Source of the DNA: Planctomycetota bacterium
GTDB taxonomy: Bacteria > Planctomycetota > UBA1135 > UBA2386
Length of the DNA: 64,000 nt
Assembly (NCBI GenBank): GCA_046290465.1
Contig: JBKAGP010000001.1
Location: forward strand, 5,440,001 to 5,504,000
Direction of reading: 5' to 3'
Both the position numbers and the translations under genes were made by a program. Each line of letters begins with the position of its first letter. Within the stretch, counting starts at the first letter, position 1. The notes under the pieces are model-generated. The model did no database searches, was not told the origin of the DNA, and was given only the letters and a program-made list of their open reading frames with translations. Below are positions 16,524 to 31,524 of the stretch, piece by piece.

Positions 16524-16793
16524 ATGACCATCGAACGCGATACCAAGAAGCAGATCATCTCCGACAACCGCCGTCACGATACCGACAGTGGTTCGCCGGA
16601 AGTGCAGATCGCCGTGCTGACGGCTCAGATCAAGGAACTGACCGCGCACATGCAGCGCCACCCGAAGGACTACCACAGCCGTCACGGTCTGCTGGCCAAG
16701 GTCAACCGGCGCAACAAGCTGAGCACCTATCTCCGTCGCACCGACCCGAAGAAGCACGCCGAACTGGCCGCCAAGCTCGGCCTGCGTCGCTGA
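16524..16793 (+). CDS. rpsO: 30S ribosomal protein S15
   Basis: 89 aa, DSGSPEVQIAVLT...HPKDYHSRHGLL...LGLRR; upstream of pnp. Confidence 0.98.
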   Translation: MTIERDTKKQIISDNRRHDTDSGSPEVQIAVLTAQIKELTAHMQRHPKDYHSRHGLLAKVNRRNKLSTYLRRTDPKKHAELAAKLGLRR

Positions 16794-17138
16794 ATCTCTC
16801 GGCCGACGAGCTCGAACGCGATCGATCTGCCTCGGGGTTCGCCACACCCCAGGAGACCCTCCTTTCGAACACATCGCGATCCTGCCGGCAGATGGCCGGG
16901 GGTCGCAACGACAGAACCCGATACCGCCACCGCCGCATCGTTTGCCGGTGGCCCCTCGCGCCAGCGACCGGAGATCCCGTCGCGGCGCCTCGCGATCCGG
17001 CCGAGATGACGCCGGTCGCACCAGCTGGCGAAGCGGGCAGGAGGTCCGCATCCCGATCGTGAGCCCCAGGTAGGGGCTGATCGGGGTTCGTCGGCGCTTC
17101 GACAACAGATCAAGAAGCAGAGAGAACCAAGAACCCAA

Positions 17139-20100
17139 ATGGCAACCAAGAAGAGCGCCGACGGCGCGAGCGCGACCAAGAAGACGCGCAGTTCCACCAC
17201 CCGCAAGGCCACCGCGCGCAAGACCACGAAGAAGGCCACCAAGAAGGCCTCCAAGAAGAGCGCGAGCAAGAAGGCGGTTGCGCCGGCCAGCGGCCACGTC
17301 GTCGTCGAGCGCGAGATCGGCGGCCGCACGCTGACCCTCGAGACCGGCCGCCTGGCCAAGCTCTCGGACGGCGCCGTGCTGGCGCGCTACGGCGACACGG
17401 TGGTGTTCGCTGCGGCCAACAGCAGCAAGGCCCCCGACTTCATGGACTTCTTCCCCCTGACGGTCGACTACCGCGAGAAGATGTCGGCTGCGGGCGTGAT
17501 CCCCGGCGGCTTCTTCAAGCGCGAAGGCCGGCCGAACACGAAGGAGATCCTGACCTGCCGGATCATCGACCGCTCGATCCGGCCGATGTTCCCCGACGGC
17601 TTCCGTCGCGACGTGCAGGTGCTGTCGCAGTGCATCGCCAGCGACCGGGAGAACGACGGCGACATCCTCGCCGCGATCGCGAGCTTCGCCGCGCTGGCGG
17701 TCAGTTCGCTGCCGCACGGCCGTTCGCTCGGCATGGTACGGATGGGCTACGTCGACGGCGAACTGGTCGTCAACCCGACCTGGACGCAGCTGCAGAGCGA
17801 GGAGAACAAGCTCAACCTGACGGTCGCCGGCCACTCGGACGCGGTCGTGATGGTCGAGGCCGGCGCCAAGGAAGTGAAGGAAGACGTCGTGCTCGAGGCG
17901 CTCGCCAAGGCGCACGAGGTCATCAAGGTCGTCGTCGAGATGGTCGAGGAGCTGGCCGAGAAGGCCGGCAAGCCGAAGATGGAGTTCGACGCTCCGGAGG
18001 CCGACGCCAAGCTCGAGGCCAAGATCGAGAAGGCGCACGGCAAGGCGCTGCGCGCCGCGCCGCTGACGCTCGGCATCAAGCAGGAGCGCCAGGCCGCGAT
18101 CAAGGAGGCCAAGGCGGCCGCCGAGGCCGACTTCGCCGCGCCGGCCGACATGGACGAGGCCGAAGCGAAGGCGCACAACAAGAAGGTCGGGGAGATCATC
18201 GGCAAGCTCGTCAAGCAGGGCGAGCGCGAGTCGATCCTCGACAAGGGCGTGCGTGCCGACGGCCGCGACACCTCGACGGTGCGTCCGATCACGATCGAGG
18301 TCGGCGTGCTGCCGCGCGTGCACGGCTCGGTGCTGTTCACCCGCGGCGAGACGCAGGCGCTCGGCGTCGTCACGCTCGGCGGCACCGATGACCAGCAGAT
18401 CATCGACGGCCTGATGCCGGAGCCGCGCAAGCGCTTCCTGCTGCACTACGCGTTCCCGCCGTTCTCGGTCGGGGAGACCAAGCGCATGCTGGCGCCCGGT
18501 CGCCGCGAGATCGGCCACGGCGCGCTCGCCGAGCGCGGCCTCGAGCCGCTGCTGCCGAGCCTCGAAGAGTTCCCCTACACGATCCGCGTCACCAGCGAGA
18601 TCATGGAGTCGAACGGCTCGTCGTCGATGGCCACGGCCTGCGCCGGCACGCTGTCGATGATGGACGCCGGGGTGCCGATCAAGCAGCCGGTCGCGGGCAT
18701 CGCGATGGGCCTGGTGATGGAGGGCAAGGACTATGCGATCCTGTCCGACATCCTCGGCAGCGAGGACGCGTGCGGCGACATGGACTTCAAGGTCGTCGGC
18801 ACCGGGCGCGGCATCACCGCGCTGCAGATGGACATCAAGTGCGAGGGCCTGACCCGAGAGATCCTCGCGGAAGCGCTCGAGCAGGCCAAGGAAGGCCGTC
18901 TGCACATCCTGCGGGAGATGCTCAAGGCGCTGCGTTCGCCGCGCAAGCAGCTCAGCCCGAACGCGCCGCGACTCGAGTCGGTGCAGGTGCCGAGCGAGAA
19001 GATCGGCCTGATCATCGGCCCCGGCGGCAAGAACATCCGTTCGATGCAGGAGGAGTACGAGGTCAAGATCTCGATCGAGGACAGCGGCCTCTGCACGATC
19101 ACCGGCGTCAACGGCGAGAAGGTCGACAAGTGCCTCGAGCACATCAAGGCGATGACCGCCGAGGTCGAACTCGGCACCGTCTACACCGGCCGCGTCACGG
19201 CGATCAAGGAGTTCGGCGCGTTCGTCGAGATCCTGCCGGGCCAGGAAGGCCTGGTGCACGTCAGTGAGCTCTCCAACGAGTTCATCCGGGCGGTCACCGA
19301 CGTCGTGCGCATCGGCGATGAGGTCGAGGTCAAGGTCATCGCGATCGACGACTTCGGCAAGGTCAAGCTGAGCCGCAAGGCGCTGATGGAGCCCGCCGAG
19401 GGCGGCGCCGAAGGTGGGGACGAGGGCGACGAAGGCCCGCGTGGCCGCCGCCCGCGTCGCGACGACGAAGGCGAGGAGCGTCCGCGTCGCTCGCGCGAGG
19501 AGCGTGGCGATCGCGGCGATCGCGAAGAGCGCCGGCCGCGCCGTAGCCGCGAGTGGGACGAAGAGGGCGAAGGTCGCGAAGAGCGCCCGGCCCGTGGTCG
19601 CGGCCCGCGCCGCGACGACGAGGTCGAGGATCGTCCGCGCCGCCCGGCGCGCGACGAGGACGGGGAGCGCGAGGAGCGCCGCCCGCGCCGCGGTCGCCGT
19701 GACGATCGCGACGACGAGGTCGAGGCCCGCGACGACGCGCCGCGCCGCGGCCGTCGCCCGCGTCGCGACGACGAAGGTGAGGATCGCCCGCGCCGTCCGC
19801 GTCGCGACGACGAAGGTGAGGATCGTCCGCGCCGTCCGCGTCGCGACGACGAAGGTGAGGATCGTCCGCGCCGTCCGCGTCGTGACGACCAAGGTGAGGA
19901 TCGTCCGCGCCGTCCGCGTCGCGACGACCAAGGTGAGGATCGTCCGCGCCGTCCGCGTCGCGACGACGCCGGGGACGACCGTCCGCGCCGCTCGCGTCGC
20001 GACGACGACGAGGATCGCCCGCGCCGCCCGCGCCGCGATGACGCCGGGGACGACCGCCCGCGCCGCGACGACGACGACGATCGCCCGCGCCGTTCGCGCC

Positions 20101-20372
20101 GGGACGACGAGGGCGACGAGCGCCCGCGCCGTTCGCGTCGCCGCGACGAAGGTGAGGATCGCCCGCGCCGTCCGCGCCGCGACGACGAAGACGAGCGCCC
20201 GAGCCGCCGCGGTGGCCGCAGCTCGTCGATGCCGATGGCCGAGTTCGACGAAGGCGGCAAGGAAGCCGGCTTCGGCGGCGAGCCCGAGCTGGAGTCGATC
20301 GACAGCGTGATCGGCGATGGCGAGGAGCGTCCGCGCCGCGGTCGTGGCCGCCGCCCGCGCCGCCGCGACTGA
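17139..20372 (+). CDS. pnp: Polyribonucleotide nucleotidyltransferase with Lys-rich N-tail and long R/D/E repeat C-tail
   Basis: DFFPLTVDYRE, RREIGHG, ESNGSSSMA, DMDFKV, KH domain (IGLIIGPGGKNI), S1 domain (FGAFVEILPG..GLVHVSE). Confidence 0.97.
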   Translation: MATKKSADGASATKKTRSSTTRKATARKTTKKATKKASKKSASKKAVAPASGHVVVEREIGGRTLTLETGRLAKLSDGAVLARYGDTVVFAAANSSKAPDFMDFFPLTVDYREKMSAAGVIPGGFFKREGRPNTKEILTCRIIDRSIRPMFPDGFRRDVQVLSQCIASDRENDGDILAAIASFAALAVSSLPHGRSLGMVRMGYVDGELVVNPTWTQLQSEENKLNLTVAGHSDAVVMVEAGAKEVKEDVVLEALAKAHEVIKVVVEMVEELAEKAGKPKMEFDAPEADAKLEAKIEKAHGKALRAAPLTLGIKQERQAAIKEAKAAAEADFAAPADMDEAEAKAHNKKVGEIIGKLVKQGERESILDKGVRADGRDTSTVRPITIEVGVLPRVHGSVLFTRGETQALGVVTLGGTDDQQIIDGLMPEPRKRFLLHYAFPPFSVGETKRMLAPGRREIGHGALAERGLEPLLPSLEEFPYTIRVTSEIMESNGSSSMATACAGTLSMMDAGVPIKQPVAGIAMGLVMEGKDYAILSDILGSEDACGDMDFKVVGTGRGITALQMDIKCEGLTREILAEALEQAKEGRLHILREMLKALRSPRKQLSPNAPRLESVQVPSEKIGLIIGPGGKNIRSMQEEYEVKISIEDSGLCTITGVNGEKVDKCLEHIKAMTAEVELGTVYTGRVTAIKEFGAFVEILPGQEGLVHVSELSNEFIRAVTDVVRIGDEVEVKVIAIDDFGKVKLSRKALMEPAEGGAEGGDEGDEGPRGRRPRRDDEGEERPRRSREERGDRGDREERRPRRSREWDEEGEGREERPARGRGPRRDDEVEDRPRRPARDEDGEREERRPRRGRRDDRDDEVEARDDAPRRGRRPRRDDEGEDRPRRPRRDDEGEDRPRRPRRDDEGEDRPRRPRRDDQGEDRPRRPRRDDQGEDRPRRPRRDDAGDDRPRRSRRDDDEDRPRRPRRDDAGDDRPRRDDDDDRPRRSRRDDEGDERPRRSRRRDEGEDRPRRPRRDDEDERPSRRGGRSSSMPMAEFDEGGKEAGFGGEPELESIDSVIGDGEERPRRGRGRRPRRRD
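19761..19955 (+). repeat. Coding tandem repeat, 5 x 39 bp (RRDD[E/Q]GEDRPRRP), with degenerate copies over about 19440-20200
   Basis: Units start at 19761, 19800, 19839, 19878 and 19917. Confidence 0.92.
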
Positions 20373-20510: not shown

Positions 20511-23500
20511 ATGGTCCGCATGCTGCTCACGACGCTGCTGGTCACCGCCCTGGCGGGGACCAGTTCTGGCCAGAACACCTCCGATCCGCAGGGGCCGGAA
20601 TTGGTCGCCAGCCGTTTCACCCCGGTCGTCGACGGCGACCTGGCGGATTGGAAGGCCTTTACTGGGAACGGCTTCGGGCGTGACCAGATCTTCGAGGGCG
20701 CCGACAAGTGGAAGAGCGGCAAGGACCTCTCGGCCAATTTATTGGTCAGCTGGGACAACAACCGGCTCTACCTCGCCGGCACGGTCCGGGACGACCAGTT
20801 CGCCGCAGACGAACTCGCCGCGCAGCGTCAGGTCGACTGCATCGAGGTCCACGTCGGCGGCGACACCCGCGACGCGGCGACCCGCACCGAGCGCAGCGTG
20901 CTGCGGCTGTTCCCGATGCAGGCGCACCGGCCGTGGGCGTGGGGCGGCGGCCAGCGCGCGGCCGTCGGTGAGGAGCCGGTCCAGCAGATCACCCAGCTGG
21001 CCGGCCTGACGGTCGTCGGCAAGCAGCTCGACGCGACCTCGTACCAGTTCGAGGCGGCGATCCCGTTCCATCACTTCCCGAACCTGCGCCCCGGCACCAC
21101 CAGCTTCGGGTTCGATCTGGCCCTGCGCGACCACGACCTCGCCGGAGGTGGCGGCGGCACGTCGATGTCGTGGAGCCGCACCGACCCGTTCTTCGGGCCG
21201 CGCAACGCGGTGCTGCGGCTCGGCGAGCCGGGCCTGCTGGCGCCGACTGTCGAGCCGCGGCCGCTGCTGTCGGGCGAACTGCTGGTCGATCTGCCGTACC
21301 TGCTGGTGCCGCTGCTCGCGCTGGTCGCGCTGGTGCTGCTGTTGCGCGGCTGGGCGCGCATCCGCGGCCGGGTGCGCTGGCTGCGCAGTGCGCTGGTGGT
21401 GGTCGGGGTCACGACCTTCCTGGTCGGGCTGTGGCTGCCGTCGCTGATGACGTCGTGGCGCGCCGACGAGCAGCGCCAGCAGCTGGCGGCACGGCTCGGC
21501 AACCTGCAGGCCATGCTGCCGTTGCTCGAGGGCGGCTCGCTGAAGAGCTACCGCGGCGCCAGCCGCGACCGCGCCGTCGTCGACCTCGTCAGCGGCCGCG
21601 GCATCACCCGCCAGCGCTACACGACCTACCGGTCGCTGGTCGACATCGCGCCCGAGCAGTTCGGGCCGCCGGTGCGTTCGTTCGACGGCCTGCCGGTGCG
21701 CTGCTACTGGCTGCCGCTGCCCGAGGAGCGCACCGAGAGCTTCCAGTTCGACCGCGAACTGCAGGGCAACAAGCTGTTCCTGGTGGTGGCGCGCCCGTTC
21801 GCGCCGTCGATCGCGCTGACCACCGATCCGCTGCCGCCGGCGGTGCTCGACATCGAGCTCGACTACGGCGAGGAGAAGGTGCAGCAGCAGATCTCGCTCG
21901 ACCTGCCGTTCGACGACGCGACGTCGCTCGGCCGCGACTTCTGGGAGGCCGGCATCGTGCAGCTCGAGCTGTCGGGCCAGCTGCGGTCGGCGACGCTCGG
22001 CTGCGCCGGCAACCCCGACGTGCGCCTGGTCGGCATGTCGCTCGAAGGTGCCGAGGTCGGCTCGGTCGAGCCGCTGTCGCTCGGCAAGCCGTCGCGCGAC
22101 GGCGTGCTGACCGATCTGCGCGGCGCCTACCCACAGGACGCCGGCCTCGAGCTGGCGCCGGGCGCGGTCGCCAAGGTCACGATCCCGGAGGACGTCGAGT
22201 CGCCGGAGAAGATGTGGCTGTTCTACCGCGCGGTCTACCCCGGCCTGCCGGCGTCCAACCCGGGCTCGCGCGTCGCCGAGGTCGTGCTGCACTTCCGCGA
22301 CGGCCGCCAGAAGCAGACCCACGTGCTCGAGCACCAGGTCTCGATGTTCTACGAGCTGGCGGTGCACAACACGCGCGATGACCCGCCCGAGGAGTCGGCT
22401 GCGTCGATCGCGCTGACGTGGGTCGACGACACCCAGGAGCGGCACGTCAACGTCGGCTACCCGCTGCTGGAGCTGCCGACCGACACGTCGGTCGAGGCGA
22501 TCGAGTTCAAGAACCTCGCCGACTACCGCATGCGGTTCCGTTCGGTGGTGTTCGTCAACCAGCGCGCGGTCGCGCCGCAGGATCCGCCCGACTCGCCGCT
22601 GGTCAAGAAGGGCAACCAGCGGTTCCTGAGCGAGGCGGCGCTCGCCGAACTCGACGACCTGGTGGTCTCGATCTACCGCACCGGCGAACTCAGTGAGTCG
22701 ACGCTCGGCCTCGAGCAGCGCGTCGACGTGCAGACGCTGCCGCGCTCGGTCGGCTCGGCCGAGTCGACCGAGACCGCGTCGCTGCTGCCGAGCGGCGGCC
22801 GCCGTCTGTCGCTGTTCGCGCCGCTGCGCGGCGACGGTTGGGACGGCGCGGTGCTGGCGGTCTCGGCGACCGACGACCAGTGGGCGGCGTCCGAGCAGTC
22901 GGGCAACCGCATGGGGCTGCTGCTGTGCCTGTTGAGCACGCCGTTCCTGCTGGTGCTGCTGAGCGAACTGCTGGCGGTCGTGACCAACCTGCGCTTCCGC
23001 CTGATGACGGTGCTCTCGGTCGCGTCGCTGGCACCGCTCGGCCTGCTGTCGCTGGTGCTCGTGCAGGTGCTCGAGAGCGGCCACGAGACCGAACTCGAAG
23101 GCAGCGTGCGCGCCACCGTGCGCAGCGCAATGGCGCAGCTCGAGGACCAGAAGGTGCGGGTGCAGCAATCGGCGCAGCAGTGGCTGCGCGACCTGGCGAC
23201 GCTGGCCAACGAGAAGCTCGAGGGGCTGCCGCAGCAGCCGCAGGGCCAGGAGCAGGGCATCTCGATCGCGTCGTTCTCCGACGAGCTGCAGGCGCTGCTG
23301 TCCGGCCAGCTGCCGCCCGAGTGGGGCGGCGGCTTCCTGCGGCTCGAGTGGCAGCAGCCCGGCGAAGGTGCGGCCGCGCCGCTGGTGCTGGTCTCGGGCG
23401 ACGACCGCATGGTGCAGGCGGAGGCGCCGGCGCGCCTCGATCCGGGCCTGTTCATGCAGTGGGGGCGGTTGATGCTCGGCGTGCGCGCCGAGCAGGTCGT

Positions 23501-26336
23501 GCACGGCGGCACGCTGTCGCTGACCGCCGGCCGCCCGATCGACGGCAGCCTGCTGGGCGCGCTGGCGCCCGGGCGCGACCTGCTGTTGACCGACGTGCGC
23601 GGCTACCCGCTCGCGGCCAGCGACGGGCGCGAACGCGCGCAGCGGCTGGTGCAGCACGCCTACGACCCGCCGACGATGGCCGAACGCGAACGCGCGGTCG
23701 CGACCGTCGAGGAGACCCGCCAGCCGGTGATCGTGCGCGAGTCCGGGCCGACCGGCGACCAGGTGGTCGGCGCCGAGGTGCTGCGCGACCTGCAGGAGAC
23801 GCCGCGCGCGCTGCTGGTGGCGGCGATGCCCGACGAGCGCGCGACGCTCGAACTCGCGATCGGGCGGATCCCGGTGCGCGCGTTCTTCCTGCTGGTCGCC
23901 GGCTCGCTGGTCGTGCTCGCGGCGTTCTTGTCGTTCGTCGTCAGCGGCCGCATCAGCCGTCCGATCGAGCGGCTCGAGAAGGGCGCGCAGGCGCTCTCGC
24001 GCGGCCAGTTCGACACCCGCGTGCCGGACGACGAGGGCGGCCAGGTCGGTCGCCTGACGCGCGCGTTCAACCAGATGGCCGAGGACCTGCACGGTCGCCT
24101 GCGCGACCTGCAGGCGCTCAACCGCACGATGGGGGAGCTCGCCGCAGAACACGACGAGGCGCGCGCGATCGAGGTCCTGCGGCGGTTCTGCGCCAACCAC
24201 ACGGCCGCCGACGCGGTGGTCGCGACGATGCTCGACGACAGCGGCACGGCGCTGGTCGTGCACAGCGACGGCGAGGTCGTCGGCGAACGGATCGAGCTCG
24301 GCGGCTTCGCGATCGTCTCGCTCGGCGGCCCGTTCTGTGCGCGCGCTCGCAGCGGCAGCCTGCCGCCGCCGTGGAGCGACGCGCTGCCGCAATCGGGTTC
24401 GGTGCTCGGCTTGCCGATCGTGTTCGCCGGCCAGACGCGTGGCGTGGTCCTGCTCGGCTTCGACCTGGGCCACCCGTCGCCGGTCGACCTGGAGCTGTTG
24501 ACGACGGTGGTCGCGCAGGCGGCGTCGGCGTGTGAGCGATCGCAGCTGCAGCGGCTGGCGGTGCAGGATCCGGTGACCGGAGCGTTTGCGACCGACTACT
24601 TCCGTCGCCGCGTCGTCGACGAGGTGTCGCTGGCGCAGCACGGCGGCCATCCGTTCGCCCTGCTCGCGTTCCGCGTCTCCGAGCGCAACCGCAGCGCGCT
24701 GCGGCTGCAGCGGTTCGCCCACCTGCTCGGCGAACGGGTCGCCGACCGCGGCGTCGTCGGGCACGGCGAGGGAGGTCGCTTCTACGTGGCGCTGCCGGGT
24801 GTCGATCGCAGCGACGCCGAACTGGTGCGCCAGGGCGTCGCGGCGGACTGGCGCGAGGAGGGGCGGCGCGACGGCATCGAGGCCGGTGGCGCCGCGTTCG
24901 GCAGCGCGGTCGTGGTGTTCCCCGAGGAGGCGGCGTCGGCCGAGTTCCTGTTCGAGGCGGTGCGCGCACAGCTCGCCAAGGATCCGGTGCGCGACGCGGT
25001 CGAGGCCGAGTCCGACGCCAGCCTGCTGCGCGCCGGCGTGACCGCGGTCAGCGCCGCGATGCGTCCGGTCTACGGCACGCTGCGGCGCGTCGCGCCGACC
25101 GACCTGCCGATCCTGCTCGAGGGCGAGACCGGCGTCGGCAAGGAGGTGCTGACCAACCTGGTGCACCGCTGGAGCCGCCGCGCCCGCGGGCCGCTGGTCA
25201 AGGTGCACTGCGCGTCGCTGTCCGAGACCCTGCTCGCGAGCGAACTGTTCGGCCACGAGCGCGGCGCGTTCACCGGCGCGGACCGACGCAAGGTCGGCCG
25301 CTTCGAGCAGGCGAGCGGCGGCACGCTGTTCCTCGACGAGGTCGGCGAGATCCCGCTCGACGTGCAGGTCGCGCTGCTGCGAGCACTGCAGGAAGGCGAG
25401 ATCGATCGCGTCGGCGGCACCGAGCCGGTCCAGGTCGACGTGCGCGTCATCGCGGCGACCAACCGCGACATGAAGCAGATGGTCGCGGACGGCCGGTTCC
25501 GGGAGGACCTGTACTATCGCCTGCAGGGCATGGTCGTGGTCGTGCCACCGCTGCGCGACCGCCGCGAGGAGTTGCCGCCGCTGGTCGAGCGGTTCCGGCA
25601 GGAGATCGTCGCCGACGGCCACGCGCCGGCGCGCGAGCTGTCCACGGGTGCGCTCGACGAGCTCTACCGGCAGGAGTGGCCGGGCAACATCCGGCAACTG
25701 CGCACGACGGTGTTCCGGGCGCTGGTGCTGGCGCGTGGGGCGGTCGTGCGCCAGCACGACGTGCTGGCGGCGCTCGCGGGCGGGGCGGCGGCTCCGGAGC
25801 TGCCGGATGCGGTCACGGTCCCGCCCGCCGAGCCGGTGGCTCCCGGCGGGTCGGCCGAGTCGGGCCCGGTCATCGAAGGGGCGGCCGCCGAAGAACCGCT
25901 GGCCGGGACCGCGCCGCCGGCCGGGATCGCCGTCGAGCCCGCTGGTGCGGAGGCGCCAGCGAGGATCCCGCGCCCTGCCGGGGATCCCGACGGTGCGGCC
26001 CCCGAAGTGTCGCGCAATCCGGCGGTCGAGGCCAAGGCGGTCGAGGTACCGCGGCCGGATGCGACGGTTCCGGATCGCGAATCCGGTGTGGCCGAATCCC
26101 ATTCCGAGCCCGACCCGGCCGATCTCTCGCCACGTCTCAGGGGGCTGCTATCCCTGATCCGGGAGCGGGGCCGATGCACCACGCAGGAGCACATGGCCAA
26201 TTCGGGAGTGTCTCACCGGACGGCGCTGCGTGACCTGCAGGCGCTTGTCTCGCAGGGGTTTATCGAGCGTGTCGGGGTTCGTCGGGGAGCCTGGTATCGG
26301 CTTTCGGCCGGCGTGACCGATTCTGCGTCCGATTGA
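20511..26336 (+). CDS. Large membrane-bound sigma-54-dependent activator (CBM9-like - multi-TM - HAMP - GAF - degenerate GGDEF - AAA+ - winged HTH)
   Basis: [66 protein letters not shown]...[12 protein letters not shown]-terminal [10 protein letters not shown]...[15 protein letters not shown]. Confidence 0.9.
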
Positions 26337-26456
26337 ATCCACAGCGTGGCCAGTTCTGTCCACATCTCGCCAAGGGTGTGGCCATTACTTTTTCTGAAGT
26401 CGTAGAAGCCTTTCCCGCAACAGGTTGGCGGAGGATTCGTCCGATTGGCCGATTGC

Positions 26457-26472
26457 AGGCCCGAAGCTTGCT
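26457..26472 (+). promoter_or_regulatory. Candidate sigma-54 (-24/-12) promoter
   Basis: AGGCCCG-AAGC-TTGCT, exact GG-N10-GC spacing, about 100 nt upstream of ATG 26575. Confidence 0.65.
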
Positions 26473-26574
26473 CATCCGGCATGCAGCGATTGGCCGAATC
26501 TCCAACCGGGTCAGCGGCCGCCGAACGCCACAGCACCACGCAACGCGAACCACGCAACGCCACGCGACACAGTC

Positions 26575-26955
26575 ATGCGCACCAACCTGATCGTCAGCTT
26601 GTTCCTCACCACCTTCCTGGCCGCGACGGCTTCTGCCCAGGTCTCCCTGAAGAAGAAGGCGGTGGTCTACGTCGGCAGCGCAGCCAATACGTCCGCGCCC
26701 GCCACGCTGGTCGCGAAAAAGGTGCGCTCGGCCACTCCTGAGTGGAAGAAGATCAAGAGCGACGGGATCGACCCGGACTCGGCTCGCGGCAAGCAGCTGA
26801 TCACCAAGATGAACAAGCGCATCCGCAAGGCGGTCAAGGCAGTCGCCGACAGCGAGAGCCGCGACATGGTGACGCGCAAGATGGACCTGCGGGACGACCA
26901 GGGTCGCGAGGTCGTCGACCTGACCGATCTGGTCATCGCCGAGATCGAGGCGTAG
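26575..26955 (+). CDS. Small secreted basic protein, OmpH/Skp-like
   Basis: Signal peptide ASA-Q; KKVRSATPEWKKI and RIRKAVKAVA...DMV...VVDLTDLVIAEI resemble the Skp body motifs. Confidence 0.6.
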   Translation: MRTNLIVSLFLTTFLAATASAQVSLKKKAVVYVGSAANTSAPATLVAKKVRSATPEWKKIKSDGIDPDSARGKQLITKMNKRIRKAVKAVADSESRDMVTRKMDLRDDQGREVVDLTDLVIAEIEA

Positions 26956-27041
26956 GGCGGTCGTCGGGGAACCCGGTTTGCGCAGTTGCGAGGCGCCGAA
27001 AGCCTCGCGCAGATCCTTCATCTGCTCCACAATCTCCGTCC

Positions 27042-28529
27042 GTGCCACGTCTCGATCTTCTCTGGCCCGCGCTGCGCACGGGGGCCTGGGCCTCGGCGCT
27101 GCTGGCGTTGGGTTGCGTCAACGCCGGCCCGCCCAAGCGTGTCGCCGAGACCCGCGTCGAGGGCGCGGTCTTCGGTGGTTCGCGGAGTGCCGGCCCGGTC
27201 GCCTGGCGGCTCGGCGACGACCACAAGCTCGACTCCGCCTCCTATCGCGCGGCCAGTGCTTCGCCGCAGGACCCGCAGGGTCAGGACCCGGAGACGGCCG
27301 AACAGCGCGATGCGCGGCTGCGTCTCGAGTTCGGCAGCAACGTGCTGATCAGCGCCGACGGCTCGGTCACCAAGCAGTTCTTCCTCGCGGGCGACCTGGC
27401 GCAGACGTTCCTCAAGCTGATCGCGGAGATCACGCCGGAAAAGCCGCCGGTCGACGGCCGGCAGCCGCAGCCGGTGCCCAAGCCGGGCACCAAGATCGGC
27501 GGTCCGGCGGCGACCAGCATCCTCGGCCGCATGCTGCGCGAGCACACCGTCGAGGTAACGTTCGTGCCGGACTTCGAGGTCCTGAGCGGGGCCAAGCTGG
27601 TCGATCAGACCAACAAGGCGTCGGTGATCACCGGCGAGCCGCCGAACTGGAAGTACAAGGACGCTCCGACCGTGTCGCTGGCGTTGGTCACGGCGCAGCC
27701 GGCTGGCCTGGCCGCGTTCGAGGCGGCGCTCGACCTGTTCTACAGCAGCATCCCGCAGGTCGAGATCAGCGTGCTGGTCATCGAGTACAACACCGGTGAC
27801 GCGCTGTCGTTCGGCGTCGCGCAGCTCGACGAGAACACGCCGATCCTCAACAACCTGACCAGCAGCCAGCTGGTGCGTTCGTACTCGTCGGCGTTCCCGG
27901 CCAGCCAGCCGATCGTCGGCACGACGCCGGTGGCCGACATCGGCCGGTTCGCGCTCGGCGGCATCCACGACGCGTGGGAGCTCAACGCGCTGATCGAGGC
28001 GCTCGAGGCCAACAACCTCGCCGACATCACCAGCTCGCCCAAGATGGTCGTGCGCAACGGCGGCGTCGCGGCGATCTCGACGCTGACGCAGGTGCCGTTC
28101 CCGAAGGCGAAGTTCTCGCAGCTCGGTTCCGAGGTCGCGACCGACATCAGCTTCAAGCCGGTCGGCGTGCGGATGAACATCATCCCGGTCATCGCCGGCA
28201 CCGACTCGGTGATCCTGCAGGTGTTCGCCGACGTGTCCGCGATCACCAGCTTCGCCGATACGACGCCGATCGTGACGCCGGTGACCAGCCAGCGCAGCGC
28301 CGTGACGACCGTCTACCTCAAGGACGGACACACGCTGGTGATCGGCGGGCTCAAGTCGAAGACCCTGTTCGAGAGCGAGACCAAGGTCCCGATCCTCGGC
28401 GACATCCCGGTGCTCGGCTTCCTGTTCCGCTCGACGTCGACGGTGCGCAACGAGACCACGGTCGAGTTCCACATCACGCCCCGGATCGTCGAGGACCGCG
28501 GCTCGCCGACGATCGGCACGCAGTTCTGA
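27042..28529 (+). CDS. Secretin (GspD/PilQ family), lipoprotein type
   Basis: PQVEISVLVIE, SSPKMVVRNG, FKPVGVRMNIIP, TTVYLKDGHTLVIGGL, KVPILGDIPVLGFLFRS, ITPRIV; GTG start with LALGC lipobox. Confidence 0.9.
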   Translation: MPRLDLLWPALRTGAWASALLALGCVNAGPPKRVAETRVEGAVFGGSRSAGPVAWRLGDDHKLDSASYRAASASPQDPQGQDPETAEQRDARLRLEFGSNVLISADGSVTKQFFLAGDLAQTFLKLIAEITPEKPPVDGRQPQPVPKPGTKIGGPAATSILGRMLREHTVEVTFVPDFEVLSGAKLVDQTNKASVITGEPPNWKYKDAPTVSLALVTAQPAGLAAFEAALDLFYSSIPQVEISVLVIEYNTGDALSFGVAQLDENTPILNNLTSSQLVRSYSSAFPASQPIVGTTPVADIGRFALGGIHDAWELNALIEALEANNLADITSSPKMVVRNGGVAAISTLTQVPFPKAKFSQLGSEVATDISFKPVGVRMNIIPVIAGTDSVILQVFADVSAITSFADTTPIVTPVTSQRSAVTTVYLKDGHTLVIGGLKSKTLFESETKVPILGDIPVLGFLFRSTSTVRNETTVEFHITPRIVEDRGSPTIGTQF

Positions 28530-28620: not shown

Positions 28621-29745
28621 TCAGAAGCCGGGGTGCGCCGCGATCCCCTGGCTGCTCGCAGCCGCGAGCGTGCTCAGGTCGAGGCCGAACGCCTGCGTGA
28701 ACACCGTCGGCAGGCCGGGCAGCACGGCCGGGATCGGCAGTGGAACCACCAGCGGTCCGGCGCCGGCAGCCGCGATCGTGACCACCGGATCGACCAGCAG
28801 CGGGCAGCCTGCGAGCGGCGCGAACACGGTGCCGACGTCCAGCGGCAGGGGCGCTACACCGCCGAGCGCGCAGCGGTCGAGGCCCACCGCCAGCACCACC
28901 AGGCTCGCGCTCGCAGGCGCCGCGCGCAGCGCGAACGTGGAGTTGCCGAGGGTCGGCGTGCCGATCGCGGTCAGCTGCAGGCTGCCCGGTGCGCCGCAGC
29001 CGGGGCCGGTGTTCGAGTCGAACGTGCCGACTCCGGCGCGCGGAGCGGCCGCCAGCGCCTGTACCTGGTTCGCGTTCCACAGGCCGTCGATCCACAGGAA
29101 CTCGTCGATGTCGAGCGGCGACGGGCTCGAGCCGCTGTCGTCGCGCGCGCCGATGGTGAAGTTGCTGCCGCTGATCCACGCCGGTGCGCCGAAGAACGCC
29201 GGCTGTTCGGGCACCCCGTTGATGTAGAAGGTCGCCTCGACCGAGCCCGAGTCGACGACGCAGGCCAGGTGGGTCCAGCCGGCGTTGAGGTCGGCGGTCA
29301 GGCTGGCGTTGGTCACCGCCACCGCCGGAAAGCCGTCCAGCGTCACCCGGCCGGTGCTGCCGATGTACATGCGCAGCTGGCCGCCGGTCGCGCCGAACAG
29401 GTAGCCGAACGGGATCGTCGTCGGGTTGCCCTGGTGGTTGCGCAGCCACATCGCGAACGAGAAGTCGCCGGTCGGCGCGTCCGGCACCCAGCCGGTGTCG
29501 ACCCGCACGCTGGTCTGGCCGGGGATGCTGCCCGAGAGCCCCTGGCCGAAGGCTCCGGTCAGGCGGCCACTGCCGGCGGCGGCGCCCTGCGCGGTCAGCG
29601 TGCCGCGCGCGCTGCCGGGTGCCAGCCCGATCACCTCCGAGCCGCAGCCCTCCTCGAAGCGGAAGTGCAGCACCTCCTGCGCGCCGAGCGCGGCGCAGGC
29701 CAGGGTGGTCGCCAGCAGAAGCCTCGCCGATCGTCCCGTTCGCAT
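28621..29745 (-). CDS. Secreted LamG/concanavalin-like domain protein
   Basis: Signal peptide; LHFRFEE, FSFAMWL, WTHLACV, FYINGV, FTIGA, IDEF motifs; extra C-terminal domain. Confidence 0.8.
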   Translation of the reverse strand: MRTGRSARLLLATTLACAALGAQEVLHFRFEEGCGSEVIGLAPGSARGTLTAQGAAAGSGRLTGAFGQGLSGSIPGQTSVRVDTGWVPDAPTGDFSFAMWLRNHQGNPTTIPFGYLFGATGGQLRMYIGSTGRVTLDGFPAVAVTNASLTADLNAGWTHLACVVDSGSVEATFYINGVPEQPAFFGAPAWISGSNFTIGARDDSGSSPSPLDIDEFLWIDGLWNANQVQALAAAPRAGVGTFDSNTGPGCGAPGSLQLTAIGTPTLGNSTFALRAAPASASLVVLAVGLDRCALGGVAPLPLDVGTVFAPLAGCPLLVDPVVTIAAAGAGPLVVPLPIPAVLPGLPTVFTQAFGLDLSTLAAASSQGIAAHPGF

Positions 29746-29877: not shown

Positions 29878-31524
29878 ATGTCGAGCCTCCACAACCGTGC
29901 CCGCAGCCGATCCGCCGCTGCCACCGGTGCCGCCAGCGATCCGCAGGCCGGCGTCGCGCTGGTGATGGCGATGATCTTCTCGATCCTGCTCTACATCCTG
30001 GTGGCCGAACTGGTCGTCTCGAGCCGCATGGTGCGCGCCACGGGTGAGAACGACGCGCTGCTGGCCAGGATGAACACCCAGATGCTCTATGAGCTGGGCG
30101 AGGCCGAGGACAAGCTGCTCGCGGACATGGCGAGCGCGACGGCCGAGGGCGAAGGCGGCGCGATGCCCGGCGGCGGCGGCGGCGCGCTCGGCGAGGCGCT
30201 GGGCTCTGCGCCGGCCGGCGGCGAGGGGCTCGGCGAGGAGGGGGCCGAAGAGGACCCGACGACCAAGTGCGATTCGAGCCGCGATGCGTGGTTCGAGCCG
30301 AGCGGCCACCCCGACAACGACCTGACCACCTACGTCTGGATCGAGGACGAGAACCGCAAGTTCAACCTGCTGTCGATCTGGAGCCCCGACGAGGAGTTCG
30401 CCCAGGAGTCGCGCGAAGGCCTGGTGCGCCTGATCGACACGCTGCGCGAGGACACCGAGTGGGACGTGCCGTCGACCGACGCGTCGCTGATCGTGCAGGA
30501 GATCGTCGAGTGGGCGCGCCGGCCGGCCACCGAGGCGATGCCGGTGCCGCCGCTCAAGAGCATGAAGGAGGACGACCGCGACTTCGCGATCCCGCTGCAC
30601 CTCGACGAGCTGATGATGCTGCCGTCGGTCGACGCGGAGCTGTTCTTCGACAAGGCGATCGACCAGAAGGTCTACCTCGGCCTCGAGTCGGTGCTGACGA
30701 TCTGGACCGCGCAGATCCAGGACCCGGGCAACCCCGAGAAGCTCGCCCGCCAGCGCGCGATCGCCGAGGCCCGCGGCCAGCGCGCGCCGCAGGGTGAGGG
30801 CGAAGGCGAAGGTGCCGGCGCCGAAGGTGGCAACGAGGCCGGCAACGAGGCCGGCGCCGAGGGCGACGAGCCGCAGCAGCCCGAGGGCATCGGCATCAAG
30901 GTCAACGTCAACACCGCCACCCGGCCGGTGCTGCGCGCGCTGTTCCCCGAGGACATGGTGCCCGATCGCGTCATCGACGGGATCATCCGCTACCGCAACG
31001 AGATCGACGAGGAAGCGACCGACGAGGCGTCCGACCAGCAGGCCGAGGAGACCTCCGACTTCGGCGACATGATGCTCGGCGACCAGCCGCTGAAGCGGTT
31101 CTTCGAGACGCTCGAGGACCTCGAGCAGGTCGAGGAGTTCGCGCAGATCCCGGATCCCGAGGTCAAGTCGAAGATCATGACCCGGCTTACGGTCAACTCG
31201 GACGTGTTCTCGATCCACCTGGCGTCGCTCTACAAGCGCAACGAGAACGAGAACAAGCGCATCTTCCTGCTGCGCCGGGCGCGCTCGATCGTGCGCCGCA
31301 TCGACGACGGCGAGGAGGGACAGATCCTGCCGATCGTGCCGTACGAGGAGCGCATCGGCCTGCGGGTGCAGCCGGTCGACATGCAGGACGAGATCCTGCA
31401 GGACTGGACGGTCACCTACATGGACATGGACCAGTTCTCGCAGGAGGAACGGGCGTGGAACCCGTTCCTGATCGACTTCTACCTGCCGCCCGACGTGCGC
31501 GAGAACTTCTACTCCAACCGCTGA
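29878..31524 (+). CDS. gspK: Type II secretion minor pseudopilin GspK-like protein
   Basis: Prepilin-like QAG-VALVMAMIFSILL; IEDENRKFNL, HLDELMML, KVNVNTA..PVLRAL, LTVNSDVFSI. Confidence 0.85.
   Translation: MSSLHNRARSRSAAATGAASDPQAGVALVMAMIFSILLYILVAELVVSSRMVRATGENDALLARMNTQMLYELGEAEDKLLADMASATAEGEGGAMPGGGGGALGEALGSAPAGGEGLGEEGAEEDPTTKCDSSRDAWFEPSGHPDNDLTTYVWIEDENRKFNLLSIWSPDEEFAQESREGLVRLIDTLREDTEWDVPSTDASLIVQEIVEWARRPATEAMPVPPLKSMKEDDRDFAIPLHLDELMMLPSVDAELFFDKAIDQKVYLGLESVLTIWTAQIQDPGNPEKLARQRAIAEARGQRAPQGEGEGEGAGAEGGNEAGNEAGAEGDEPQQPEGIGIKVNVNTATRPVLRALFPEDMVPDRVIDGIIRYRNEIDEEATDEASDQQAEETSDFGDMMLGDQPLKRFFETLEDLEQVEEFAQIPDPEVKSKIMTRLTVNSDVFSIHLASLYKRNENENKRIFLLRRARSIVRRIDDGEEGQILPIVPYEERIGLRVQPVDMQDEILQDWTVTYMDMDQFSQEERAWNPFLIDFYLPPDVRENFYSNR

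Follow-up and report, generated by a model that had tools for sequence, protein, structure and literature searches.

The window analysed here is a stretch of 64,000 nucleotides from a Planctomycetota bacterium (contig JBKAGP010000001.1, positions 5,440,001 to 5,504,000 of the forward strand; coordinates below are those of the window), whose genome is one contig of 6.59 Mb. It holds a long gene for an activator of sigma-54-dependent transcription, followed by a predicted sigma-54 promoter and by genes for a small Skp/OmpH-like protein (mini-Skp), a lipoprotein secretin and a GspK-like minor pseudopilin. An initial annotation, made from the letters alone, had described the activator as a transmembrane one-component protein, and we could find at 20511-26336 (+) the open reading frame (ORF) that it reported, together with the motif strings that it quoted. 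The parts of the activator are, in order:

20511-26336 (+), predicted membrane-spanning one-component sigma-54 activator, 1941 amino acids (aa), single ORF
20595-21227 (+), CBM9/DOMON-fold domain after a predicted signal peptide, by Pfam and fold match; Trp sugar clamp absent here
21279-21455 (+), predicted transmembrane (TM) segments TM1 and TM2 with an Arg-rich inside loop, by hydropathy and model
21462-22910 (+), second region predicted to be extracytoplasmic (aa 318-800), with a helical stalk, a pair of inserted jelly-roll domains and a PAS/Cache-like sheet
22917-23081 (+), predicted TM3 and TM4, by hydropathy and model
23082-23855 (+), predicted extracytoplasmic domain of dCache fold, by fold match
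23880-24092 (+), predicted TM5 and HAMP domain, by hydropathy and Pfam
24195-24530 (+), GAF-like domain, aa 1229-1340, below the Pfam cut-off here and above it in some relatives
24552-24950 (+), degenerate GGDEF-like domain without the GG[DE]EF motif
25047-25784 (+), sigma-54 AAA+ domain and lid, with Walker A/B, GAFTGA, Arg finger and sensor II
25788-26120 (+), Pro/Ala linker without conservation; its length in 67 sequences is 17-156 aa (median 74)
26124-26300 (+), DeoR/DIP2311-like winged helix-turn-helix (HTH) with a conserved S-x-R-T-x-x-R-D-L helix

The activator gene and its domains

The odd size and domain mix of this ORF are the sole support for reading it as an assembly chimera that joins a soluble activator to a diguanylate-cyclase-like membrane sensor. 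First, by using the first 1200 residues as query, we found orthologues in 73 of the 90 genomes of the same family and, for three sister families, in 3/3, 10/11 and 3/3 genomes; at E 1e-12 none was detected in 49 f9 and 136 f10 genomes. We fetched 67 activator loci, chosen for long contigs and spread, and all 67 have the gene as a single open frame of 1805-2049 aa. Second, a profile search matched 150 of 401 genomes of the phylum, many via the CBM9 part alone. Among 40 loci fetched from this search, 25, belonging to 12 further families, have a single frame that encodes sensor, ATPase and winged HTH; the remaining 15 are CBM9-only matches without such a frame. Overall, orthologues measure about 1,600-2,100 aa and are spread over 16 Planctomycetota families. 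Third, a database search with the protein returned 80 hits, the names of the relatives being those of Planctomycetota; a sigma-54 ATPase was found in 26 of the 28 distant proteins scanned, and distant relatives keep a 2+2+1 pattern of helices, with CBM9 missing from some. Finally, an independent contig spans 20147-25274 without gaps and with 42 differences, thereby bridging sensor and ATPase. The 92 same-frame loci, the 80 database hits and the independent contig together rule out the chimera, to which we give practically no chance, as well as the mis-assembled fusion that the initial annotation had considered: 20511-26336 is one real, old gene. Of the 31 sigma-54 ATPase matches in the genome, 24 are full-length, and only the product of this gene combines a multi-pass region with this winged HTH. 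The gene for sigma-54 itself, rpoN, whose presence had been left to be confirmed, is there in 2 copies.

Hydropathy predicts five hydrophobic segments in the activator; over the 67 aligned sequences, there are five in 47, six in 13, four in 5 and seven in 2. The loop between TM1 and TM2 carries on average 4.7 Lys/Arg versus 0.27 acidic residues, and that between TM3 and TM4 1.9 versus 0.0. Both loops obey the positive-inside rule, which agrees with a cytoplasmic location of the part from HAMP to HTH, and such a location, predicted from hydropathy, loop charge and the AlphaFold model (aa 22-1150, pLDDT 86), fits the five TMs, the two further extracytoplasmic regions and the cytoplasmic output that had been proposed. 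In hydropathy and model, TM segments and DNA-binding domain thus share one chain, with no kinase. The proposed signal peptide has hydropathy as its sole basis, a hydrophobic N-terminal stretch being found in 53 of 70 database homologues.

In the cytoplasmic half, we recovered all the parts named in the initial annotation, the GAF domain being weak. Pfam finds HAMP at aa 1144-1194 (E 7e-14), and the TM-HAMP junction is the most conserved stretch outside the ATPase. Among 28 distant relatives, 11 match PF00990, the model of the GGDEF fold. The GG[DE]EF active-site motif occurs in 0/90 full-length family members and an RxxD site in 1/90, which rules out an active diguanylate cyclase and, for the RxxD mode, a receptor of c-di-GMP. 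The Sigma54_activat domain at aa 1513-1674 scores 221.6 bits against a cut-off of 20.2 (E 6e-66) and the AAA lid is also matched; GAFTGA is exact in 86/90 members, and Walker A/B, Arg finger and sensor II are conserved. At the C-terminus, HTH_DeoR matches aa 1875-1921 (E 2e-6), with 39/46 members matching this model and 33/46 matching DIP2311-like_C, and Pfam gives no match to the Fis-type HTH_8, in agreement with the DeoR-like HTH reported before. The protein stays below the cut-off of each named NCBIfam activator model shown. By the criteria that the ATPase sequence offers, it would nevertheless be a bona fide bacterial enhancer-binding protein (bEBP), outside the Fis-HTH norm.

The predicted promoter behind the gene, its inversion and its loss

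Past the activator stop, the window contains the following elements and genes:

26314-26498 (+), cluster of TG[GA]C[CG]RA[AT]-type sites, candidate binding sites of the winged HTH
26385-26420 (+), AT-rich tract between the distal sites and the promoter, candidate DNA bend
26457-26472 (+), sigma-54 -24/-12 element AGGCCCGAAGCTTGCT, 120 nt past the activator stop
26575-26955 (+), mini-Skp, small secreted Skp/OmpH-like protein, 126 aa, with shortened helical arms
27042-28529 (+), lipoprotein secretin (PF00263), lipobox Cys at 27114
29878-31524 (+), minor pseudopilin resembling GspK, with scores under the family cut-offs; the unit's third conserved gene

Given the position of the -24/-12 element, transcription is predicted to start near 26483. 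By comparing 67 intergenic regions from activator stop to mini-Skp (66 relatives and the window), we found GG-N8-TTGC in 60 of them, where shuffled sequences would give 8.7 and the reverse strand gives 7; upstream of the activator gene, it occurs in 5/67. The site that had been proposed about 120 bp downstream is thus conserved. The GTGGCCA repeats singled out by the initial annotation at 26346 and 26378 are both present, though not as stand-alone elements: they are two members of a wider set, with copies at 26314, 26347, 26367/26379 (an inverted pair), 26426, 26446 and 26491. The density of TGGC[CG]RA[AT] is 9.1/kb in the promoter regions, on which the motif was defined, compared to 2.6/kb before the activator gene and 0.53/kb within its coding part. 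Offsets recur near -169, -137, -106, -38 and +8, with a copy at -37 to -40 in 21/60. Genome-wide, and with crude ORF calling around the sites, three strict motif copies accompany only 1 of 3,409 GG-N8-TTGC sites, which is the window promoter, and by matrix 2 of 4,458 sites; 20 of the 27 strongest sigma-54-like sites are without a strict motif. The motif variant also varies with one residue of the recognition helix (TGGCC[GA]A with His, TGGCG[AG]A with Pro, Ala or Gln, TGGCGCA with Arg), a correspondence that runs along lineages. The AT-rich tract, likewise noted before, has a GC content of 42% versus 71% for the window, and in relatives of 48% versus 64%.

Other readings of this region were rejected. 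A terminator-like hairpin is flagged at 26360-26381, but it folds no better than shuffled sequences (z -0.88, 35/200 as good) and the motif moves with mini-Skp upon inversion (see below), so the GTGGCCA region is not a terminator only, though it may have a dual role that includes one. By sequence pattern, DnaA boxes would account for 3/67 loci and IHF sites for 1/67. A wider regulon was also discarded: at 17 approximate gene starts (pilins, ATPases, secretins and genes related to these), no score exceeds 8.2. Upstream of the activator gene itself, 12/67 loci carry at least 2 motif copies, a hint of autoregulation. Another strong -24/-12 site with a motif layout like that of the window promoter lies at G000:C1:4183534 (-), locus L248. 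It precedes a 41-codon ORF, and the divergent gene reads like an ECF sigma factor. Within the genus, just 2 of 14 genomes match the site, weakly and over short stretches; it is not conserved there at the DNA level.

Behind the activator, mini-Skp is found in 63 of the 67 loci, the secretin in 63 and gspK in 56, the misses being mostly contig ends; the synteny of activator, mini-Skp and secretin had been anticipated, whereas the GspK-like gene had been overlooked. In the 25 distant loci, the pair mini-Skp-secretin is directly downstream in 13, adjacent and inverted in 3 and elsewhere in 9, and mini-Skp is present in all 9 of these last genomes. In the three inverted loci, motif and promoter precede mini-Skp and do not lie behind the activator, clearly so in L134 and L136 and weakly in L149. 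Activator, mini-Skp and secretin are jointly absent from 11 of the 90 family genomes, four of which are at least 92% complete. Another 4 genomes have the activator and lack mini-Skp, secretin or both, and their completeness is 58-75%. In loci without the activator, pnp usually adjoins mini-Skp-secretin-gspK directly, and rpoN is kept in 30/30 activator-less genomes. Outside the training set, a promoter matrix score of at least 10 is reached by 10/26 loci with the activator compared to 2/20 without, and at least two motifs are found in 12/26 compared to 2/20, kin not being independent.

Together, the observed fusion, intact ATPase motifs, rpoN, promoter, motif cluster, gene order and co-loss suggest that the activator is probably a one-component membrane receptor that directly activates the promoter behind its own gene, and this promoter would likely drive mini-Skp, the secretin and the GspK-like gene. 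Several points weigh against this reading. First, the topology is a prediction from hydropathy and the AlphaFold model, and the aromatic sugar clamp of CBM9 is absent from the window protein. Second, the quoted motif density comes from the very regions that served to define the motif, and related loci are not independent; enhancer sites rarely lie as near to a promoter as the copies at -38 and +8, and the motif is itself similar to the -24 element. Third, 6 of the 90 family genomes retain mini-Skp and secretin without a detected activator, two of these (L190 and L191) keep a GG-N8-TTGC match, and a looser GG-N8-TTG[CAT] fails to separate loci without the activator (8/20) from loci with it (7/14); such absence calls are themselves fallible, as G107 was missed by the profile search yet carries the activator. 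Fourth, a minus-strand gene at 28621-29745 splits gspK from the secretin in this genome. Finally, 23 other full sigma-54 activators of the genome could serve the window promoter.

This last point belongs to a reading that we hold to be very unlikely, namely that the promoter is real and run by another, soluble activator, with the winged HTH repressing or modulating, or that the motif is sigma-54-related and the membrane protein acts elsewhere. The sites at -38 and +8, which flank the polymerase site, the match kept in two activator-less loci, the other activators and the similar layout at G000 4183534 (-) would all be consistent with it. The conservation of GAFTGA and of the catalytic motifs, the lack of the strict motif at most of the strongest sigma-54-like sites and the loss of the motif together with the activator argue instead for activation by the membrane protein itself. 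In L190 and L191 (genus g29), which have no activator between pnp and mini-Skp, a palindromic GGCAAG-N3-CTTGCC fits the -24/-12 spacing, and rewiring to another regulator is possible there. In five activator-less genomes, a search for a soluble protein that carries this winged HTH and could replace the activator gave just weaker matches, in frames of 137-402 aa.

Mechanism, signal and known systems

In the mechanism that we propose for this receptor, ligand binding outside would move TM5 and the HAMP dimer, and the signal would pass via GAF and the enzymatically dead GGDEF fold, acting as coiled-coil relay and brake, to the ATPase, a route suggested by the domain order. The AAA+ domains of several receptor dimers would oligomerise beneath the membrane, the long linker would free the winged HTH to hold TGGC[CG]RA[AT] sites, the AT-rich tract would bend the DNA, and GAFTGA would remodel the sigma-54 holoenzyme with the promoter pulled to the membrane. 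No such promoter accompanies the pilus/secretion ATPases, platform proteins and pilins, which are encoded elsewhere; the likely output is therefore control over the gate in the outer membrane, and over the tip, of a type IV filament machine of type II secretion system (T2SS) kind.

The ATPases of bEBPs work as rings, and a ring whose every subunit is held by five membrane helices makes heavy steric demands. This would speak for activation by a soluble GAF-GGDEF-AAA+-HTH part, set free by proteolysis (as in regulated intramembrane proteolysis) or made from an internal start. Three soluble FHA-GGDEF-like-AAA+-Fis activators (P0291, P0307 and P0328) also have a dead GGDEF beside the ATPase, the GGDEF-like part being common to both groups (E 3e-10, 9e-9), and they group near the activator family in a quick AAA+ tree whose deep support is weak. 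On the other hand, the conserved TM-HAMP junction is a hallmark of conformational signalling and the long linker already frees the HTH, and we regard release as quite improbable compared to signalling by the intact receptor.

As to the signal, we examined the extracytoplasmic domains. The first matches Pfam CBM9_1 at aa 65-223 (E 6e-8, above cut-off) and its model aligns with 1i82, a CBM9 structure (Z 17.1, rmsd 2.9, 179 aligned), which bears out the CBM9/DOMON-like domain seen initially; its acidic residues are invariant over the 67 sequences. In the accessible parts of the description of TmCBM9-2, the sugar clamp consists of Trp71 and Trp175 (PMC8280721). The position of Trp71 is Gln in the window protein and Trp in 31/67, and no equivalent of Trp175 was seen in the profile or in the 23 rows inspected. 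Given that the clamp is missing, glycan sensing, one of the cues proposed in the initial annotation, is just a guess, while the other half of that proposal, direct activation of envelope/secretion genes, is backed by promoter, rpoN, synteny and co-loss. The jelly-roll pair (aa 365-688, pLDDT 94) has middling fold matches (AziU3/U2 at Z 11.1, CBM8 at 8.5, CBM15 at 8.2 and other sandwiches at about 8), and such likeness in a model would by itself give no function. The PAS/Cache-like sheet of the same region was read from secondary structure only, and a structure-atlas search with aa 318-800 gave no usable match. Between the TM helices, model residues 830-1094 have the long helix and tandem PAS-like fold of a dCache domain (Z 11-12); the match to McpX 6d8v (Z 12.4, rmsd 5.0, 214 aligned) is tied by many dCache structures, and a Pfam scan of the protein gave no Cache match.

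The cue is the weakest step of our explanation. With a chance that we put somewhat below even, it is a glycan or a surface polymer outside the cytoplasm, and the jelly-roll and dCache domains, not the CBM9 clamp, would be its readers. With the same wiring and only the signal differing, the receptor might instead sense the state of its own envelope or of the secretin/pseudopilus through its TM helices and periplasmic domains, as a feedback on its targets (chaperone-like protein, secretin and pseudopilin). No conserved sugar-use genes lie nearby, the CBM9 clamp is lost in the window clade, and the whole CBM9 domain is absent from two f2 members and from database relatives (profile matches begin at positions 216-251). 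A precedent exists in PilS, which senses pilin according to the accessible parts of PMC6058289. We nevertheless consider feedback rather unlikely: ligand binding is indicated by the dCache domain and by three beta-sandwich domains, the closest structural matches of which are for the most part carbohydrate-binding modules, and lineages that lack the activator still have the operon. The activator is well supported as a system and its signal unproven. More speculatively, and with less confidence than for the polymer cue taken alone, it may represent five-pass receptors of an old Planctomycetota family, whose tandem lectin-like domains bind an external polymer and thereby drive an in-membrane sigma-54 ATPase ring, while a borrowed winged HTH tethers the promoter and a T2SS-like machine is gated by rationing secretin and tip.

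Compared to known systems, the activator shares with bEBPs (PF00158; the one-component types NifA, NorR and FhlA, and the NtrC type) an intact GAFTGA AAA+ domain, GAF, a nearby -24/-12 promoter, upstream sites and an AT-rich tract. It differs from them in its five predicted TMs, about 1,000 extracytoplasmic residues, HAMP, a dead GGDEF beside the ATPase and a winged HTH for Fis. Its input layout of sensor, TM and HAMP is that of membrane dCache-HAMP-GAF-GGDEF diguanylate cyclases, with the catalytic motif gone in 90/90 members. Sigma-54 activators must oligomerise and loop DNA, some are sequestered at the membrane, as in the pair PspF-PspA, and regulators of the ToxR, TcpP and CadC class have, to our knowledge, no ATPase and act with sigma-70. 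What that class shares with the window activator, as far as the available text goes, is a one-component build with an outside sensor and DNA binding by a winged HTH from the membrane (PMC10269533); nine supplementary files of this survey have no 'sigma' domain entry, which its filter may explain. In the available part of a survey of 431 Clostridiales activators, regulatory domains are mostly without TM regions (PMC6615313). As described in the accessible sections of PMC6058289, PilS-PilR also puts a type IV filament gene under a membrane sensor and a sigma-54 activator. In contrast, the window system is one polypeptide with a large periplasmic sensor and neither kinase nor receiver, and it targets secretin, GspK-like protein and mini-Skp rather than the major pilin, no strong site being found before the pilin genes checked. 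RedR2-BtdS likewise ties activator activity to the membrane, but the available text has RedR2 as soluble, held inactive by a membrane partner and acting after release (PMC10084136), while the window activator is predicted to be integral.

We found no published description of this architecture, older domain-architecture surveys in subscription journals lying outside the scope of the search, and no integral-membrane activator of this build in the accessible parts of PMC6615313, PMC4641369, PMC12316311, PMC3162934, PMC10084136, PMC6058289, PMC8280721 and PMC10269533. The characterised sigma-54 activators that we found in print are soluble, or membrane-held until release. However, two uncharacterised database proteins, P0293 (TM-TM-HAMP-PAS-AAA-Fis) and P0315 (multi-TM-GAF-AAA-Fis), are also membrane-anchored sigma-54 ATPases, without a match to the sensor or winged-HTH profiles of the window family. 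Because such unrelated integral-membrane activators exist, the novelty is narrower than the initial annotation, which had not recognised the architecture, implied. If our reading is true, a pathway from outside to sigma-54 is complete in a single chain, without the usual two-protein relay. A conserved integral member with a single promoter, a motif that tracks the recognition helix and lineages that lost the regulator makes in-membrane bEBP function testable, and it offers an entry point to the regulation of a lipoprotein-secretin/GspK/mini-Skp module that is so far unstudied and that uncultured Planctomycetota carry widely. HAMP-coupled sigma-54 output could also serve as a tight one-protein biosensor scaffold.

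The downstream genes and their neighbourhood

Two further features frame the unit in the window:

16524-20372 (+), rpsO and pnp, the usual upstream neighbours
28621-29745 (-), LamG-domain secreted protein between secretin and gspK here, outside the conserved unit

The mature chain of mini-Skp has 106 aa versus about 143 for Skp. The likeness to Skp behind the initial naming is partial: a comparison with Skp from the PDB gives E 0.0012, confined to the 48 C-terminal positions in the body of Skp, OmpH is matched by 46/63 copies at E<=0.05 (best 1e-7), and the window copy scores 17.8 bits against a cut-off of 32.4. An atlas search matched Planctomycetota clusters without names, and a co-folding run of mini-Skp with the secretin scored 0.00, which speaks neither for nor against a complex. 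The secretin, also named initially, scores 129.8 bits against 27.5 for PF00263, and no Pfam N domains were matched. A lipobox-like sequence is found in 67 of 74 secretin loci, and the start is most likely GTG 27042, judging from sequence, and not 26742. Both the secretin (141.5 versus 351 bits for TIGR02517, the T2SS GspD) and the GspK-like protein (28.4 versus 130 bits for NF037980) are below the family cut-offs, so their products may work like GspD and GspK, not filed as equivalogs. The genome has 7 secretin matches, 13 matches to ATPases of T2SS/type IV pilus type and 16 pilin N-termini.

Relatives carry other insertions at the secretin-gspK junction, and since these recur, gspK may be transcribed separately in some lineages. 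The secretin gene is tandemly duplicated in L034, L035, L146, L152 and L200. A second, divergent mini-Skp copy lies at G000:C1:4005955-4006269, in a mobile-looking region with no secretin nearby. The polynucleotide phosphorylase encoded by pnp (17139-20372) has a Lys-rich N-terminal extension and, past its S1 domain, an Arg/Asp-rich repetitive tail of about 320 aa. Finally, a dispersed REP-like repeat of about 36 bp occurs at about 50 places in G000, often as close inverted pairs, for example at C1:4136905-4136950.

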